64,000 nucleotides of DNA from Escherichia coli O127:H6 str. E2348/69 (GTDB taxonomy: Bacteria > Pseudomonadota > Gammaproteobacteria > Enterobacterales > Enterobacteriaceae), in the NCBI RefSeq assembly GCF_000026545.1, contig NC_011601.1; one strand, 5' to 3'. The stretch's first letter is position 1. Each line of letters begins with the position of its first letter. This document shows positions 48,690-57,607 of this stretch, piece after piece. The notes under the pieces were generated by a model. The model saw only the letters and a list, made by a program, of their open reading frames with translations. It had not been told where the DNA came from and searched no databases. The translations under genes and the position numbers were made by a program.

Positions 48690-51422
48690 TCAGGTCTTTC
48701 TTATTAACCATGCTTCCAGAGCGGCAACACTGCGTGTAATTTCTTCGTGTGGAAGGGGGGCAGATAATGGCTGCTGCTCCAGTTGTGCGCATTGCTGGCT
48801 GGCGCTACGCATTCCCAGACTCGAGCAACTGCTTTTTAGCTGATGTGCGGCACGCTTTATTTTCTCGTTATCCTGACTGGCGCGGGCAATGTCGATTTCA
48901 TCGAGAAGCGGCAGGGCATGTTGTTTAAATAATATCAGCCATTCGTGGAGCTTCTCCGCCCCCATTAAATGAGCATCTTCATTGAGTTGCGATACATCCA
49001 GTGGTTGATCGTTATTGACTTGCAGTTGGAGATAGTGCGCCAGTAATTGACCGAGCACTTCACGCGGCACCGGTTTAGGGATAATCCCGCGAAATAGCGA
49101 ACTGGTACGCTGTCGCAGTGTTTCGTCAATGACATGGGCGCTAAAGCCAATCAAAACCAGTGACGGATATTGCTGTGCCAGTTGCCGGGCAAGGGTAATG
49201 CCGTCGATATCCGGCAGATCAAAATCCACCAGTGCGGCAGCAAACGGTTCGCTATTTTGCAATGCCTCTATTGCCTGCGCGGCATTTCCTACGGCAACGA
49301 CCTGCGCACCACTGGTGTTCAGCATTTCGACAGTAATTCGCTGGGTGAGCGGGTTATCTTCAATTAACAGCAAACGCAAATCGTCCAGACGTACCGCCTG
49401 ATTGACTGTTTTGGGCACGGGTGCAGTGGCAATACGTAACGGCAAGCGTAAACAAAAACAGCTTCCAACCTCCGGCGTGCTGGTGGCGCTCAGTTCGCCA
49501 CCCATCGCCTGGGCCAGGCGGCTACTGATAGTCAGCCCCAGCCCGGTGCCGCCGCGTTTGCCGCTAACCTGAACAAATGGCTGGAAGATTTTAGCCAGTT
49601 TCGCGGGATCAATACCGCAGCCGCTGTCTTCCACTTCGACCAGCCATTGTTCGCCATCAGTGCGACTACGCAGAATAATGTGCCCTTCGTCGGTGAAACG
49701 CAGGGCGTTGCTCAACAGGTTGGTAATGACCTGACGAATACGCCGCGGATCGCCCATTAACGCAGTCGGTACATCGTCGGCAATTTCTGTTGCCAGGCGA
49801 ATCGGGCGACCTTTCACCCTTCCGCTCATTAATTGCAGGGTACTTTCCAGCAGCGGGCGCGGTTCAAAGGGTTCATCGCTGACCGAAACATTCTTGCCGC
49901 CTGCTTCGATAGCCGAATAATCGAGAATATCGTTGAGGATGGTCAGCAACGATTCACCAGAGTCGGTAATCGCCCGCAAATCATCGCGCTGGGCGTTAAG
50001 TGCGGGGTTATCTGCCAGCAACTGTGCGGTGCCGAGAATACCGTACAGCGGTGTGCGGATCTCATGGCTCATCGCCGCCAGAAACGCTGATTTTGCCTGG
50101 TTGGCTTTTTCTGCTTCCGCCCGTGCCTGTCGGTGTTCTATCACCAGTTCCTGCAATTCAGCTGTACGCGCTTTGACCTGCGCCGCCAACTGTTCACGGT
50201 GGCGATTCAGTGCATGAACACTGCTGCGAAACGCATCCATCAGCCGCCCGATGGTATCCAGCTCCCGTACGCCAGCGGTTTCCGGGAAAGGGGAGTCAAT
50301 ATCACCGTCCAGCAGTCGTTGCAGCGCCTGCGTTTGTTCGGCAAGTGGACGCGTGACTGAGCGATAAACCACGCGCCAGAGGATCAGTATCAGTGCGCAA
50401 AGTGAAACCATCCCCAGCAATAACAGGCTGTATTGCCCGCGTGCACTGGCTTTTTCCAGATGCGCCAGTCCGTGCTGATTACGCAGCTCAATGGTGTCGA
50501 CCAGCTGACTGACTTCGCTACTAAACTGCGCGAATTGGGCGATGTTATTTTGGGCGAGAGTTTGCAGGTGATTGCTGATTTCACTGTCCTGCTGATACAG
50601 CGCCAGCAAATCGCTATATTGGCTAACGGTAGTTAACGTTGTTGCTACCTGAGTACGAACACCCGGATCTTCAATGCGTATTTGCCGACGTTGCAGAATT
50701 TTCACCGCATTATTGAGCTGCTTTTCCAGCGTTGGCGCATTTTTCTGGATCTGTTCCAGCCCCAGATTCATCACCATTTGCTGCACCCGCAGGGCGCTAA
50801 GGCGCAGTTCATTCATCTGGTTAACATACTCAAGATCGATATCAATCAGCCGATCGAGTGCACTTTCTGCGGCCTGACGCTGATGTTGTTCGATCAAATC
50901 GTAAATCCCGGCCTGGGTCGCTCCGGCGGAGGTTGCCGCATTATTCGCCTGACCTTGCGCCAGGCGTGCGATCTCATCGGCGGCGGCGACTATCTGCTGA
51001 CTGAGTTGCTGTTGTTGCTGGCGCAGTTGCAAACGCTGTCCCACCAGTTCCCCTTGCTGACGTAACGAACGGGAGATCTCCTGCTCCTGTTGTTCAATAG
51101 CGGTGGTGTCAAAACCTTGTTCCCGTAACGCTTGCAGCAACGCATTAATCTTCAGGCTTTGTGCGGTGAGCATTCGCCCCTGCGCCTGCCACATCTTTTC
51201 GTTATCGGCACTGGTCAGGTTCTGCGCGGCGAAAAGTTCCCAGGCGCTGGCTTCGCTCAACTGGCGCGCCATATTCATGGTAGGAATCAATGCCTGAGTG
51301 TTGTCTTTTTCCACCTGGCTGATAAAGCGCAGGTTGTACCATCCCACCAGGGTACTGGTCAGGGTTAACAGCGCCATCAGGGCAAAGCCCATCCAGAGTC
51401 TTCGGGTCAGGGTTAAATTCAC
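48690..51422 (-). CDS. torS: TMAO sensor hybrid histidine kinase TorS
   Basis: 910-aa ORF with HAMP, HisKA (SHEIRTP), ATPase, receiver (DFDLPDIDG) and HPt domains; GTG start at 51422. Confidence 0.9.
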
Positions 51423-51516
51423 GGTCGGTGCACTTTGGGTGAATAAGTTGTATATTTAAAATCTCTTTAATTATCAGTAAATTAATGTAAGTAGGTCATT
51501 ATTAGTCAAAATAAAA
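51423..51516. other. attL region (bacterial/phage junction plus P' arm) between torS start and int stop
   Basis: Only 94 bp separate the torS start from the int stop; the junction must lie here, core not resolved by eye. Confidence 0.5.
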
Positions 51517-52590
51517 TCATTTGTCGATTTCAATTTTGTCCCATTCCCGTCCACGGCTGTCCCTATACCGCGCCGCCATTGAATCTGATTTATGCCCGAG
51601 AAGACGTTGAGCAAACTTATCGCCAATCTGGTTCCGGTATAGCCTCGCTGACAGGCTACGCAGTTCATGGAATGTTGGCGGGTTTCCATCAAATGAGAGG
51701 CCAGATGCATTTCTCGCCTTTGTAAAATACTTTGATACTGTTTTCGGGGAAAGCGGATCGTGATGCTTTGATGCGATTATAGTTTCACTGCTGCTGGCCT
51801 CCCTGCATTTCTGTAGTGTATCAGCCAATGAGATATTGAGCGCGTCAATCGTTAGCGTTAGCGGAATGGCGAGTTTAGCCCCTGTTTTACTCTGTTTAAT
51901 GTGAAGATGGTTGTCGTTTATGTCTGACCATTTCATTCTGCACAAATCGCCGACTCTCTGCCCTGTAACGACGGCCAAATCCATCGCCAGCCTTAGCCAG
52001 ATAGGGAGAGGTTCGGCTGCATGGTAAATCTCGACATACTCATTAGCTGTCAGCCTTGAGCGCCTTACTTCTGACTTTGCTGTACGGGTTGCTGTTACCG
52101 GATTCGTTGCCACATGCCCCTCGGCTATTGCTTCACGAAAAACGTCAACAAGGGTTGACCTGATTAATTTTGCGGAAGCTGCTTTACCTTCTGCTACGTA
52201 GGTGTTTAGCATTGCTGCCACTTCTTTCGTTGATATGTCAGTGAGCGGTTTGTCCGGCAATTTTCTTCGGATTGCCCTGATTTTGCTGGCGTAGTCGAGT
52301 AGAGTTTTCGGCCTGATCCCCCTTTCGGTGAGGATTGTTTCATATCGGTCAAGCCACACATGAAGAGTGATTGCGTCACCGCCTTTAATTCTGTCTATCA
52401 GTGATTTGCGTCCGCTGTCTGAGAGTAACTCAATATTGGCCTGTATTGCTTCAGTGATTGCTATCCTCCTGTCTCGGCCTAATCCAAACTCTTTACCCGT
52501 CCTTGGGTCCCTGTAGCAGTAATATCCATTGTTTCTTATATAAAGGTTAGGGGGTAAATCCCGGCGCTCATGACTTCGCCTTCTTCCCAT
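51517..52590 (-). CDS. int: lambda-family tyrosine integrase
   Basis: 357 aa; N-terminus MGRRRSHERRDLPPNLYIRNNGYYCYRDPRTGKEFGLGRDRRIAITEAIQANIEL matches lambda Int arm-binding domain; catalytic region diverges (HK022-like?). Confidence 0.95.
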   Translation of the reverse strand: MGRRRSHERRDLPPNLYIRNNGYYCYRDPRTGKEFGLGRDRRIAITEAIQANIELLSDSGRKSLIDRIKGGDAITLHVWLDRYETILTERGIRPKTLLDYASKIRAIRRKLPDKPLTDISTKEVAAMLNTYVAEGKAASAKLIRSTLVDVFREAIAEGHVATNPVTATRTAKSEVRRSRLTANEYVEIYHAAEPLPIWLRLAMDLAVVTGQRVGDLCRMKWSDINDNHLHIKQSKTGAKLAIPLTLTIDALNISLADTLQKCREASSSETIIASKHHDPLSPKTVSKYFTKARNASGLSFDGNPPTFHELRSLSARLYRNQIGDKFAQRLLGHKSDSMAARYRDSRGREWDKIEIDK

Positions 52591-52786
52591 TTCTGATCCT
52601 CTTCAAAAGGCTACCTGTTACTGGTCGATTTAAGTCAACCTTTACCGCTGATTCGTGGAACAGATACTCTCTTCCATCCTTAACCGGAGGAGGGAATATC
52701 CTGCACTCGCGTACCCATCGACGAACTGTTTCAAGGCTTCTTGGGCGTCGCTGGCGTGCGTTCCACTCCTGAAGTGTCAAGTACAT
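52568..52786 (-). CDS. xis: excisionase
   Basis: 72 aa MYLTLQEWNARQRRPRSLETVRRWVRECRIFPPPVKDGREYLF, essentially lambda Xis; overlaps int start. Confidence 0.95.
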   Translation of the reverse strand: MYLTLQEWNARQRRPRSLETVRRWVRECRIFPPPVKDGREYLFHESAVKVDLNRPVTGSLLKRIRNGKKAKS

Positions 52787-52825
52787 CGCAAAGTCTCCGC
52801 AATTACACGCAAGAAAAAACCGCCA

Positions 52826-52993
52826 TCAGGCGGCTTGGTGTTCTTTCAGTTCTTCAATTCGAATATTGGTTACGTCTGCATGTGCTATCTGTGCCCATAT
52901 CATCCAGTGGTCATAGCAGTCGTTGATGTTCTCTGCTTCGATAACTCTGTTGAATGGCTCTCCATTCCATTCACCTGTGACTCGGAAGTGCAT
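52826..52993 (-). CDS. small hypothetical phage protein (55 aa)
   Basis: Hand-translated minus-strand ORF MHFRVTGEWNGEPFNRVIEAENINDCYDHWMIWAQIAHADVTNIRIEELKEHQAA between xis and ea8.5; not in ORF track. Confidence 0.3.
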   Translation of the reverse strand: MHFRVTGEWNGEPFNRVIEAENINDCYDHWMIWAQIAHADVTNIRIEELKEHQAA

Positions 52994-53081
52994 TTATCAT
53001 CTCCATAAAACAAAACTCGCCGTAGCGAGTTCAGATAAAATAAATCCCCGCGAGTGCGAGGATTGTTATGTAATATTGGGT

Positions 53082-53363
53082 TTAATCATCTATATGTTTT
53101 GTACAGAGAGGGCAAGTATCGTTTCCACCGTACTCGTGATAATAATTTTGCACGGTATCAGTCATTTCTCGCACATTGCAGAATGGGGATTTGTCTTCAT
53201 TAGACTTATAAACCTTCATGGAATATTTGTATGCCGACTCTATATCTATACCTTCATCTACATAAACACCTTCGTGATGTCTGCATGGAGACAAGACACC
53301 GGATCTGCACAACATTGATAACGCCCAATCTTTTTGCTCAGACTCTAACTCATTGATACTCAT
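53082..53363 (-). CDS. ea8.5: Ea8.5-like protein (Cys/His-rich)
   Basis: 93 aa, position after xis as in lambda; C19, C27, H29/H30, C62, C85, C88, H91 suggest zinc binding. Confidence 0.6.
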   Translation of the reverse strand: MSINELESEQKDWALSMLCRSGVLSPCRHHEGVYVDEGIDIESAYKYSMKVYKSNEDKSPFCNVREMTDTVQNYYHEYGGNDTCPLCTKHIDD

Positions 53364-53565
53364 TTATAAACTCCTTGCAATGTATGTCGTTTCAGCTAAA
53401 CGGTATCAGCAATGTTTATGTAAAGAAACAGTAAGATAATACTCAACCCGATGTTTGAGTACGGCCATCATCTGACACTACAGACTCTGGCATCGCTGTG
53501 AAGACGACGCGAAATTCAGCATTTTCACAAGCGTTATCTTTTACAAACCCGTATTCCTGCTCATA

Positions 53566-54234
53566 TCATTCTCCTTTGATGCGAATGCCAGCGGCGCGGA
53601 TAGATTTCCATTGTTCCCATATGCGGTTGAAGTCTGTTCCTGATAAGGTCGCGTTACGGTATCCAGTTTCGGTGCGCAATCCTTCAAGCGTCGATTTGGA
53701 AATACAAATTGAATGCATTACCCATGATTCGAACAAATCACGCTCCCGGGCTTCGCAACTTTGCTTACTCATCTCTTCGATACGTTCAGCCATCGCAGCA
53801 CACTCTTCAAAGTTACTTAATGCTTTTCGCTCCCATTCGGCGCATTGTTTTCCAAGCTCTGCAATCAGCTTGTCTTTGCCTTCCAGCTCAACTCGCAGCT
53901 TCCCTACCGTTAGCGCAATATCCTCGTTCTCCTGATCACGGCTTTTGATGTATTGCTGGTTTCTTTCCCGTTCATCCAGCAGCGCCAGCACGGTAGCTGG
54001 ACTGGCTGCGGCGATGAATTCAGCATTGGCCTGCTGTTCCATTTGGAAATCTTCATCGAAACCGCTTTCAGGATGCGCTCCTTCAATTATGCAAATGGGA
54101 ATATATCCAGCAGCCTCGCGATGAATTAGCGCATCATCACAATCAAATCGGCTCTCTCCATATTCGAGCGACCATACACCACACGTTGCTTTTTCTGCCT
54201 TGGCACGCAGTGCCTCATAGTCAATCTTGCTCAC
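53566..54234 (-). CDS. Ead/Ea22-like protein with coiled-coil C-terminal half
   Basis: N-terminal [18 protein letters not shown]... is the conserved Ea22-type start; probable GTG start at 54234 six nt after RBS aaggagg and overlapping upstream stop (alternative ATG at 54267). Confidence 0.6.
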   Translation of the reverse strand: MSKIDYEALRAKAEKATCGVWSLEYGESRFDCDDALIHREAAGYIPICIIEGAHPESGFDEDFQMEQQANAEFIAAASPATVLALLDERERNQQYIKSRDQENEDIALTVGKLRVELEGKDKLIAELGKQCAEWERKALSNFEECAAMAERIEEMSKQSCEARERDLFESWVMHSICISKSTLEGLRTETGYRNATLSGTDFNRIWEQWKSIRAAGIRIKGE

Positions 54235-54812
54235 TGGTTGCCTCCTTTGCGAATCTGTTCCGCCCATTCTTCAAGGGATTTCTCCGCATATTCACCGGAC
54301 AGGCCATCAATCGGGTGCAGTTCATTAGCCAACTCTTCTTTCGCTGACAGAATCATGCGTGTAACGTCGAAAACTTCACGCAAAGACTTATTGATAAATC
54401 CGTGGTTGAAAGCAGCAGCAAGACGGCTGGCGGTATAGTTAATCCCCTCGTTGCGTGCTTCTGCACGAATTTCAGCCAGAAAAGCATCGGTAGCTGGGGT
54501 GTCTGATTGCAGAAACTTTGCGCGATAGTCATTCCACCCTCTTGCATACATGGGATTAACTTGCACTCCATCTTTTACGCAATATGCCTGCCCTCCACGG
54601 TTGATAACCTTGATTTCGTCCATAGCGCCAGACTTCAGCCCCGCATTCTCCGCTGCCAGCGCCGCGCACTTGGCCTCAGCTTCAGCAAATTTACGCACCA
54701 TATATTCAGCATTTGTTTCGTTAACCTTTAAATCACATGAGATGCATTTACCTTTCAGAAATCCATCCATCTCAATTAGTGTCATTCGTTTCATTTCTTC
54801 CCACTCCGCCAC
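54231..54812 (-). CDS. hypothetical phage protein (193 aa)
   Basis: Long ORF in lambda b2/ea region, tightly packed with neighbours; no recognisable motif. Confidence 0.5.
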
Positions 54813-54973
54813 ATCGCATTCAGATATTTGTTTTGATTCACTGACGGAGAAGAATTTCTCTTAAGCAATTCCTCTCTCGATGGCATTGGCTTTACGCGTT
54901 GGCGAATAATCATTTCTGCCGGAAGAATGCCGGGATTGTATGCAAGTCCTCTCATGGTAAATTCCTCAGTCAT
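54791..54973 (-). CDS. hypothetical small phage protein (about 60 aa)
   Basis: Internal Met ([15 protein letters not shown]...) of ORF 54791..55105 gives a start just past the upstream stop. Confidence 0.3.
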
Positions 54974-55259
54974 TACTGATAGCGCCATAGCGTGAGCGGT
55001 AATTACGCAGGCGCGGGTCAATTTCAGGGAAGTGTGTATATGCGGCTTTGCGGAATGGTCGTATTGATGTCTGGTAAATTCGCTCTCGTTCTTCTTTCTC
55101 TGCAAGCCATATACAGTGGCGAAATTCCTTTTCCTCTTTCGTTTCCTGCGGTAGCGACATTATCCGGTCGTAGTTTTTCCTGAATTTATCCAGCACCTCC
55201 GATACGGAATTGCCGGAACAGCGGCGCGGGTCATCCGCACCATACTGAGGCGCTGGCAT
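54966..55259 (-). CDS. hypothetical phage protein (97 aa)
   Basis: ORF immediately downstream of ssb. Confidence 0.45.
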
Positions 55260-55272
55260 GATTTTCTCCTGA

Positions 55273-55779
55273 TTAAATTGCGTGAATAGCGTGACGAGGG
55301 AAGGGGAGAGTTACTGGTGCAAAGGGTATATCGTCGTCAAAATCCATCGGAGGTTCGTTGTGTTGTGCTGGTGATGATTGCTGCTGTGGCTTCTGTGATT
55401 GCCTGCTGGCTGCTTGTTGTTTGCTGTCGCCAATGCCGCCAAGCATTTGCATCACGCCATTAATTCCGACATGAACCTCGGTTGTGTAACGGTCTTGCCC
55501 TGACTGGTCTTTCCACTTTCTGGTTCTCAGCATTCCCTCGAAATAAATCTGATCACCTTTTTTCACATACTGCCCCACGACCTCAGCCAGTTTCCCGGAT
55601 ACAGCAACACGATGCCATTCAGTCAATTCCTTTTGCTCGCCAGTATTTTTATCTCGCCATTGTTCTGACGTGGCTATTGTCAGGTTAGCGAACGCTGTTC
55701 CTGATGGTGAGTATCGAACTTCCGGGTCTTGTCCTACCCGACCAAGGATAATCACCTTATTTACGCCTCTGCTTGCCAT
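55273..55779 (-). CDS. ssb: phage single-stranded DNA-binding protein
   Basis: 168 aa starting [23 protein letters not shown] (OB fold), Gln/Pro-rich linker, acidic tail DFDDDIPF. Confidence 0.9.
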
Positions 55780-56487
55780 TTATGCTGCCTGTTTTAGTTC
55801 GTTAACTCTGATGTTCATTACCTGAACACATTTAGCCTGCGCCTCCTCGTTGCCAGCCATTAATTGCCAGTCACGCTGATAACGCTCGATGAGTTTTTTC
55901 TTGTCAGTTTCTGTCGCTGCATAATCGCTGAAGTCTTTCAGGATTTGTTCGCAGTCAACCGATGGAGATTTCTGGTTGGTATTTTCTGGTGATGGTTTGT
56001 TATCTGATGCTGGGATTGCCCATCCCGGCAGTGATGGAGGTAGCCAGTAAAATCCTGTTCCATCCTTCAGTTTTGCCCTGTGCCACCCCTGCTTTTTATC
56101 GAGAGATGTTTGTGCGAAACCTTCCTCAAGGTTATACAGATACCGACCGATTCCCCACTGAACGGCAGCGCGCTTCATTGCACCGGAACGACCGCCTTTG
56201 ACAGCTTCTACCTGCGTGTTTTCAGCAGCATCCCATTTGGTTACCCATTCGGAATCAATCCTGATTGATATGCCGCATTCAACGCCTCCGTTGTTGGGAA
56301 TATCGCGGTATTCATTGCGCCATCCTGCTTTGCCGCAAACATCGTCCAGACGTTTCATGATTGCCCGGTTCGTGACATAAGCCAGCACCATAGCCCACAC
56401 CTTGCCATCGCGTGTTTTACCGCTTTGCTGTATTCGCCATTCGATATCTTCAGGGCTGAATGGCTCATCGAATTTGTTCAAATCCAT
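55780..56487 (-). CDS. single-strand annealing recombinase, Rad52-like N-domain with Erf-like C-terminus
   Basis: 235 aa; N-terminal half has Rad52/Sak-type motifs (GISIRID, AMKRAAVQWGIGRYLY); C-terminal 50 aa (EQILKDFSDYAATETDKKKLIERYQRDWQ...) resembles P22 Erf C-terminus as recalled; adjacent to ssb. Confidence 0.7.
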   Translation of the reverse strand: MDLNKFDEPFSPEDIEWRIQQSGKTRDGKVWAMVLAYVTNRAIMKRLDDVCGKAGWRNEYRDIPNNGGVECGISIRIDSEWVTKWDAAENTQVEAVKGGRSGAMKRAAVQWGIGRYLYNLEEGFAQTSLDKKQGWHRAKLKDGTGFYWLPPSLPGWAIPASDNKPSPENTNQKSPSVDCEQILKDFSDYAATETDKKKLIERYQRDWQLMAGNEEAQAKCVQVMNIRVNELKQAA

Positions 56488-56586
56488 AATTCACCTCAGA
56501 ATGGACACGGCCCAAGGAAATAACGCTGATTTAATACTTCGACTCGGGACAAATTAAGGCATACCCGCATTCCTTCGCGGTCGCCA

Positions 56587-56745
56587 TTATGGCGATACCA
56601 GAGAGCTTTCTGCGTGTACATGCGTCTCTGTAACTTGCTCTCCTTCACTGTGGTTGCAAGTGACATGAATATCTCCTTCGTTACCGATTAATTCTTTCAT
56701 CTGACGAATGAATTCTTCGTCTGAGCAGTTATCTGTAAAACTCAT
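56587..56745 (-). CDS. small acidic hypothetical protein (52 aa), coupled to kil
   Basis: Hand-translated ORF MSFTDNCSDEEFIRQMKELIGNEGDIHVTCNHSEGEQVTETHVHAESSLVSP; its ATG overlaps the kil-like stop (ATGA). Confidence 0.3.
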   Translation of the reverse strand: MSFTDNCSDEEFIRQMKELIGNEGDIHVTCNHSEGEQVTETHVHAESSLVSP

Positions 56746-56894
56746 TTCCTGCGATACCACGGAAGGTTGATAGCTGATTTCATCGCTTTATTTGCTTCAA
56801 GCCACATTTTGGAATCACCAATAAATCTGGCTATTACTGCTTTGTTCTGTGCAGCACGAAGCATCTGGTGATTGATGGCTATTTCATTGCGCAT
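56742..56894 (-). CDS. kil: Kil-like host-killing small protein
   Basis: Hand-translated 50 aa MRNEIAINHQMLRAAQNKAVIARFIGDSKMWLEANKAMKSAINLPWYRRK; FIGD-x-KM motif and position next to cIII as in lambda. Confidence 0.45.
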   Translation of the reverse strand: MRNEIAINHQMLRAAQNKAVIARFIGDSKMWLEANKAMKSAINLPWYRRK

Positions 56895-57013
56895 AACGCC
56901 TCCAGTTGTTTCTTTGCTGCTCTGATTAATTGTTTAACTCGGCGTGATAATTCAGATTCGTGCGGGTAGAAAGCGGACATGACGCCGCTACCCGCGAGCT
57001 GAAAGTGCATCAT
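56879..57013 (-). CDS. cIII: cIII-like FtsH inhibitor
   Basis: 44 aa MMHFQLAGSGVMSAFYPHESELSRRVKQLIRAAKKQLEALCAMK after RBS aaggag; pattern resembles lambda CIII (AG...V...P.ES.L..R). Confidence 0.5.
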   Translation of the reverse strand: MMHFQLAGSGVMSAFYPHESELSRRVKQLIRAAKKQLEALCAMK

Positions 57014-57088
57014 GGGTAACTCCTTATATTTGATTGCATAACGAAAACGCCTCGAGTGAAGCGTTATTGGTATGCGGTAAAGCCGCAC

Positions 57089-57457
57089 TCAGGCGGCCTT
57101 GATAGTCATATCATCTGAATCAAATATTCCTGATGTATCGATATCGGTAATTCTTATTCCTTCACTACCATCCATTGGAGGCCATCCTTCCTGACCATTT
57201 CCATCATCCCAGTCGAACTCACAAACAACACCATATGCATTTAAGTCTTTCGAAATTGCTATAAGCAGAGCATGTTGCGCCAGCATGATTAATACAGCAT
57301 TTAATACAGAGCCGTGTTTATTGAGTCGGTATTCAGAGTCTGACCAGAAATTATTAATCTGGTGAAGTTTTTCCTCTGTCATTACGTCATGGTCGATTTC
57401 AATTTCTATTGATGCTTTCCAGTCGTAATCAATGATGTATTTTTTGATGTTTGACAT
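57089..57457 (-). CDS. highly acidic 122-aa protein in the lambda ea10 slot
   Basis: ORF with RBS gagga; C-terminal EFDWDDGNGQEGWPPMDGSEGIRITDIDTSGIFDSDDM; low GC; terminator directly upstream. Confidence 0.6.
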   Translation of the reverse strand: MSNIKKYIIDYDWKASIEIEIDHDVMTEEKLHQINNFWSDSEYRLNKHGSVLNAVLIMLAQHALLIAISKDLNAYGVVCEFDWDDGNGQEGWPPMDGSEGIRITDIDTSGIFDSDDMTIKAA

Positions 57458-57475
57458 CTATTCATATCCTCATAG

Positions 57476-57503
57476 ATAAAAAATCGCCCTCACATTAGAG
57501 GGC
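57476..57503 (-). terminator. intrinsic terminator between the 156-aa moron and the 122-aa gene
   Basis: Minus-strand hairpin gccctc-taatgt-gagggc followed by gatttttt. Confidence 0.7.
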
Positions 57504-57607
57504 AAAGAAGATTTCCAATAATCAGAACAAGTCGGCTCCTGTTTAGTTACGAGCGACATTGCTCCGTGTATTCACTCGTTGGAATGAATACACAGTGCTT
57601 ATTCGTA

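Follow-up and report, generated by a model that had tools for sequence, protein, structure and literature searches.

The locus analysed here lies in a lambdoid prophage of Escherichia coli O127:H6 str. E2348/69 that adjoins torS. It raises the question of where translation of an Ea22-like gene begins when the sequences that would direct its initiation are part of the coding sequence of the gene before it. The window, i.e. the whole stretch of DNA analysed, comprises 64,000 nucleotides. The Ea22-like gene belongs to the leftward early (exo-xis) operon of the prophage, the order of which is N, kil, Rad52-like recombinase, ssb, anti-RecBCD (abc2), DUF2737, EaE-like, ead/Ea22-like, Ea8.5-like, a small ORF, xis and int. 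In RefSeq, three of these genes form a chain with 4-nt overlaps, DUF2737 - ATGA - EaE-like - GTGA - Ea22-like. The relevant features are as follows.

54791..54955, minus strand: DUF2737 family coding sequence, 54 aa, which opens the overlapping chain (RefSeq WP_001214459.1).
54231..54794, minus strand: EaE-like coding sequence, 187 aa, with an ATG start at 54794 and an ATGA overlap with the DUF2737 stop at 54794..54791 (RefSeq WP_000827661.1).
53566..54234, minus strand: ead/Ea22-like coding sequence, 222 aa (669 nt), with a GTG start at 54234..54232 and a TGA stop at 53568..53566 (RefSeq WP_012578863.1; PF13935).
54231..54234, minus strand: GTGA, the Ea22-like start codon overlapping the EaE-like stop (sequence; RefSeq).
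54241..54247, minus strand: Shine-Dalgarno (SD) sequence AAGGAGG, 6 nt before the GTG, inside the K-G-G codons of the EaE-like gene (sequence; duplex energy).
54229..54250, minus strand: 5' gene-boundary block GCAAAGGAGGCAACCAGTGAGC, made up of SD, spacer, start and Ser codon (conserved across loci).
53559..53586, minus strand: 3' boundary block ATTCGCATCAAAGGAGAATGATATGAGC, encoding IRIKGE-stop, with AAGGAG at 53576..53571 and an ATG 1 nt past the stop (sequence; comparison of loci).
53541..53564, minus strand: apparent remnant ORF of seven codons, MSRNTGL-stop (sequence; comparison of loci).

A promoter/terminator scan found no promoter-like or terminator-like site on the minus strand from 56500 to 53100, and Rfam gave no RNA family in 51000-64000. 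Directly beyond the prophage integrase gene, torS (48679..51422, minus strand) abuts the prophage end and is a frameshifted pseudogene in RefSeq.

On the minus strand, the junction between the EaE-like and Ea22-like genes reads ...CAG ATT CGC AAA GGA GGC AAC CAG TGA GCA AGA TTG..., with the EaE-like stop TGA at 54233..54231 and a 6-nt spacer, CAACCA (54240..54235), between the SD and the GTG. The first-pass annotation had proposed that the Ea22-like gene starts at this GTG, 6 nt after a perfect AAGGAGG that is itself encoded within the C-terminal KGGNQ of the upstream protein (AAA GGA GGC AAC CAG, then TGA), and that the GTG overlaps the upstream stop as GTGA. All of these elements are present as described, and the RefSeq start, the Pfam profile, the homologue N-termini and the SD agree on the start. 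RefSeq/PGAP already places the start at GTG 54234, both here and in one near-identical genome, and position 1 of the Pfam Ead_Ea22 profile aligns to residue 2 of the GTG-started protein. Judged from sequence comparison, we put the probability that translation of the Ea22-like gene begins at GTG 54234, to give a 222-aa protein, at roughly 0.9.

The alternative start is ATG 54267, which is in frame, with no stop before the GTG, and from which the longest ORF of the gene would give a 233-aa protein with 11 extra residues. The earlier proposal that this ATG would add 11 residues absent from the conserved start holds; the accompanying overlap with the upstream gene is 37 nt rather than the 36 nt it gave, a trivial difference. 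As an initiator GTG is weaker than ATG, and extensions of this kind have been called in a few database entries (P0054, P0063, P0042). However, when homologues of the 233-aa query were compared, 111 of 120 clusters (~92%) opened, at the position equivalent to the GTG, with M-[STN]-x-I-[DN] or a one-residue variant of it, and the 11 extra residues, which are unconserved, are missing from these clusters. Three homologue clusters are extended (one of them MDYFYEGGQPV-S...), and in each of these the ORF call just runs further upstream across the same ...QPV(GTG) junction. The Pfam profile begins after the GTG, and RefSeq does not use ATG 54267.

The initiation signals likewise differ between the two codons. 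For GTG 54234 the duplex of the SD with the anti-SD of the 16S 3' end has a calculated energy of -11.6 kcal/mol at a 6-nt spacing, whereas the GGAG nearest to ATG 54267 lies 13 nt before it (-6.6 kcal/mol), which is too far, such that this ATG has no usable SD. Of 200 shuffles, 199 fold better than the 126-nt region around the initiation site (z = +2.17), which fits an open initiation region. Within the 64-kb window, the two strands together contain just two copies of AAGGAGG, both of them 4-9 nt ahead of a start codon; the copy other than that of the Ea22-like gene, at 38415 (minus strand), is 5 nt before an ATG (ggcaAAGGAGGctttgATGtg) and is presumably the ribosome-binding site of a host gene.

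Comparison at the nucleotide level also bears on the choice of start. Among 76 IMG/VR loci encoding relatives, 55 have GTG and 19 have ATG as the aligned start codon, and the upstream sequences of these loci sort into 20 unrelated contexts. Because many of the loci are close relatives, raw locus counts (55 with GTG and, for the KGE end considered below, 52) are not independent events, and the independent support is the number of distinct contexts (20 here and 26 in a second sample described below). In 13 of the 20 contexts, the stretch from the nearest upstream stop to the conserved codon has no in-frame ATG, GTG or TTG, so there the conserved N-terminus can be obtained from no other start. 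Mean column identity over 17 context representatives rises from 0.39 (-60..-40) and 0.45 (-40..-30), via 0.60 (-30..-21), to 0.87 (-21..-1) and 0.96 (+1..+21), i.e. upstream conservation begins only about 21 nt before the GTG. Conserved residues matching the ATG-initiated extension, which would have spoken for ATG 54267, were looked for and not found, with nothing conserved beyond about -21 across the 20 contexts. The comparative data thus largely refute a start at ATG 54267, as far as sequences can, and we regard translation from that codon as extremely improbable.

It might be argued that the E2348/69 prophage makes two isoforms, with ATG 54267 and GTG 54234 both used, given that both codons are in frame and open here and in the close relatives (11 loci). 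All 11 loci with the E2348/69-type upstream context are identical across the overlap between the ATG 54267 extension and the EaE-like gene. The evidence against ATG 54267 counts against its use for a second isoform too; moreover, an extension at that position is found in just one of the 20 contexts and its residues are set by the EaE-like codons, which makes a conserved function for it unlikely. Dual use of the two codons is therefore highly improbable, and GTG 54234 is retained as the start in what follows.

The upstream gene also requires a corrected start. Its longest ORF begins at GTG 54812 and gives the 193-aa protein named in the first-pass annotation, a length that applies to this ORF only, whereas RefSeq starts the gene at ATG 54794 (187 aa). 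The sequence MK(Q/K/R/L)M(S/T)LIE, which follows from the ATG, opens 100 of 120 EaE-like homologue clusters, while MAEWEEMK, from the GTG, opens only 3. A GGAG lies 9 nt upstream of ATG 54794 (-6.2 kcal/mol); GTG 54812 has no SD (+0.3), and at least 10 related loci carry GTT in its place. These data support ATG 54794 as the predicted start of a 187-aa EaE-like protein, the 193-aa version being a longest-ORF mis-start.

The EaE-like protein had been described as of unknown function, and this stands: it has no known function and no Pfam, NCBIfam, PADLOC or PDB match, relatives of it being named 'Eae protein' (P22 eaE) or DUF4752 in some sources. Its AlphaFold2 model is poor (mean pLDDT 58.1). 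NCBIfam, PADLOC and PDB sequence searches yielded nothing usable for either protein, the single PDB match, to FKBP3 (E = 0.53), being noise. We detected no relatedness between the EaE-like and Ea22-like proteins of the window. A hint from PHROG 368 and some PF13935-labelled matches that other phages might carry the EaE-like protein as a fusion with an Ea22 N-terminus was followed and rejected; the entry concerned (P0170) is an ordinary EaE-like protein that shows no similarity to the Ea22-like protein.

The same description does not hold in full for the 222-aa protein, since a pro-lysogenic role of the Ea22 family has been published, on the basis of deletion mutants in lambda and Phi24B (PMC7093339; PMC10834534). 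The 222-aa protein matches PF13935/IPR025153 with 100.5 bits against a cut-off of 27, its residues 2-161 covering profile positions 1-137 of 139. The architecture described for Ea22, namely a short N-terminal part, a long central coiled coil and a variable C-terminal domain (PMC10834534), is recovered here in the AlphaFold2 model and the PHROG assignment. The model has a helix and small sheet over residues 1-48 (low confidence), a helix over 78-177 (core pLDDT 88-97) and short C-terminal helices; its mean pLDDT is 71.7, and the long helix is the one part modelled with confidence. The last 75 aa match a separate PHROG (29036). The gene also lies in the early-left region, upstream of Ea8.5-like, xis and int, and its product ends ...AGIRIKGE, i.e. 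with the K/R-G-E typical of the family. By Pfam match, architecture, position and KGE end, the protein is thus a member of the Ead/Ea22 family.

Conservation of the 21 nt before the GTG is what would be expected if the sequence around the start travels with the Ea22-like gene rather than with its neighbor. The 22-nt block GCAAAGGAGGCAACCAGTGAGC occurs once in the window, against 0 expected from shuffles. In a sample of loci anchored on the block, with 117 occurrences in 26 upstream contexts, 85 occurrences precede an Ea22-type N-terminus and 32 precede unrelated genes. The unrelated genes, which follow the block AAAGGAGGCAACCAGTGAG, fall into seven families of 74-214 aa that include DUF7739 and DUF7446, the others having no Pfam match among those scanned (L017, L019, L029, L032, L038, L044 and L053; also L086 onward). 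The block is therefore a short border sequence conserved between unrelated flanks, with 20 and 26 upstream contexts in the two samples and eight downstream families. Several of the Ea22-type frames that come after the block have a length of just 20-71 codons and may thus be truncated or decayed copies carried by some prophages.

Upstream genes end on the block in two frames: 97 end ...RKGGNQ-stop, with the GTGA overlap, and 20 use the other frame, in which they end ...AKEATSEQD-stop at a point 11 nt inside the Ea22 gene. The GGAG core is retained in every junction variant, irrespective of the upstream reading frame. Some of the small genes in the seven unrelated families begin at one block copy and terminate by running, in a different frame, through the copy that follows. 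The DUF2737 family provides a comparison within one protein. Here, with an EaE-like gene next, its tail is ...NAMWRSGKK-stop, versus ...NAM(L/W)RKGGNQ-stop where an Ea22-type gene comes directly next, the two versions parting right after ...ATGT(G/T)GCG.

These observations bear on the possibility that the sequence upstream of the GTG is kept for a functional ...RKGGNQ peptide tail and not as a ribosome-binding or boundary sequence. Many EaE-like proteins do share an ending AEQ(I/L)RKG.., and the conservation of 0.60 at -30..-21 is intermediate. Against this, other upstream genes read the block in the second frame, with the GGAG core unchanged, DUF2737 gains the RKGGNQ tail only where an Ea22-type gene comes next, and the residues after K-G differ (GNQ, SSQ, VQS, VIQ, ADK, GKQ) while AAAGGAG is fixed. 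In the EaE-like gene of the window the codons over the SD are AAAGGAGGC, for which AAGGGTGGT is a synonymous alternative. We consider conservation for the peptide very unlikely; as judged from these comparisons, the upstream ...RKGGNQ tail is a by-product of the block that belongs to the downstream cassette.

The end of the Ea22-like gene, ATT CGC ATC AAA GGA GAA TGA T ATG AGC..., has the same layout as the 5' block. The sequence ATTCGCATCAAAGGAGAGTGA is identical in 52 of 72 loci (a raw count, to be read as above), where it forms the 3' end of Ea22-like genes that code for 175-316 aa and differ in their C-terminal domains; 1 nt past the stop in those loci comes the ATG of the next gene, a place taken by at least 12 different genes. 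The invariant IRIKGE-stop-coding block is ATTCGCATCAAAGGAG(A/G)TGA (loci L003-L082). In most other tail types, too, an overlapping or adjacent start is closely preceded by an SD core. A terminal K/R-G-E has been reported for all Ea22 proteins, with its significance stated to be unknown (PMC7093339), and we found no explanation of the motif in a review (PMC8614690). Our results suggest that the K-G-E of Ea22 is probably AAAGGAG read as protein, i.e. the SD and boundary block of the next gene.

In the E2348/69 prophage, the MSRNTGL-stop ORF begins exactly where a downstream cassette would start, and it looks like the stump of a lost downstream gene. Lambda has a further-deleted version of the sequence of this region.

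Short conserved boundary sequences at lambdoid gene borders have been proposed (Susskind & Botstein 1978; Clark et al. 2001), as reported in passages of PMC3029335 and PMC3528268. The Ea22 block resembles these boundary, or linker, sequences in its length of about 20-30 nt and in its place at a gene border between unrelated flanks, and the Ea22-like cassette is flanked at both ends by a related form, ATTCGC..AAAGGAG..N6-7..(G/A)TGAGC; it differs from them in that, for the Ea22 block, recombination is something we only infer. We lean, with some reservation, towards the view that the RKGGNQ ends of EaE-like and DUF2737 proteins and the +GE/IRIKGE tails are the translated shadow of portable SD-containing blocks of about 20-30 nt that flank cassettes, rather than protein motifs, the blocks acting as homology patches for exo-xis cassette swaps in lambdoid and P22-like phages. 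Boundary sequences as such are an old idea; what seems not to have been stated before is the reading of the block in two frames and this account of the +GE motif.

With respect to initiation, the following model is consistent with what the sequences establish, namely the start position, the SD, the GTGA overlap and the block's portability. The Ea22-like gene is the third in the chain, on a polycistronic mRNA presumably transcribed from pL. Its ribosome-binding site lies in the last EaE-like codons and, around its start codon, the gene shares three bases with the EaE-like TGA stop. With the SD inside the upstream gene and the start overlapping the stop, ribosomes might either be recruited directly by the strong SD or, having terminated at the TGA, start again, i.e. 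by translational coupling. The weak GTG would be compensated by the strong SD and the unstructured initiation region, and the ~22-nt SD-spacer-GTG-AGC block would be part of the downstream cassette, not of the upstream gene. Translational coupling via overlapping stop and start codons of the ATGA/GTGA type occurs at E. coli trpB-trpA. The chain resembles such pairs in its 4-nt stop/start overlaps (GTGA, and ATGA at 54794..54791), in the SD within the upstream coding sequence with a 6-nt spacer, in the shared operon and in having no promoter or terminator between the genes. Set against this, the SD of the Ea22-like gene is very strong and could support independent initiation. As the initiation region is predicted to be unstructured, the dependence of Ea22-like translation on that of the EaE-like gene may be weak.

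Comparison with characterised phages places the arrangement in context. Lambda ea22 (NP_040612, 182 aa) also starts with GTG AGC (GTG AGC GAA ATT AAC...; V/M-S-E-I-N-S-Q-A-L-R-E-A), its GTG overlaps the TGA of the upstream orf73 frame (...AAG TGA GC), as in E2348/69, and it occupies the same exo-xis position upstream of ea8.5, xis and int. The two proteins share the coiled-coil core (61% identity over 74 aa) and their last eight residues, AGIRIKGE. Lambda differs in its weaker SD (GAGAGG) and in the identity of the upstream gene, and its protein is without ~36 residues of the N-terminal region found in E2348/69 and has another C-terminal domain (PMC10834534). The HK620 genes hkaI-hkaH-hkaG (DUF2737 / hypothetical / ead-Ea22-like) are closer, having the same order with 4-nt overlaps at both junctions, and the HK620 junction, TCGCAAAGGAGGCAGCCA-GTG-AGC (L047), is one base off the block of the window. 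By contrast, hkaH has another middle and C-terminal region and so represents a different upstream context, and hkaG encodes 238 aa with another C-terminal domain and has hkaF directly downstream.

The GTG start and the GTGA layout are thus ordinary and already annotated, and are not new. Their biological weight is small because, in lambdoid early operons, GTGA/ATGA pairs whose SD lies in the upstream coding sequence are the usual arrangement, lambda ea22 being one example. In annotation terms, longest-ORF calls are wrong for two adjacent genes (233 to 222 aa for the Ea22-like protein and 193 to 187 aa for the EaE-like protein), the RefSeq coordinates being right. The analysis has as by-products a corrected upstream start, a portable block read in two frames and a likely explanation of the +GE motif. 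The K/R-G-E and RKGGNQ tails are probably constrained by the ribosome-binding and boundary sequence of the next gene, not by protein function, and work on the structure and function of Ea22 should be cautious in treating those tails as functional motifs.
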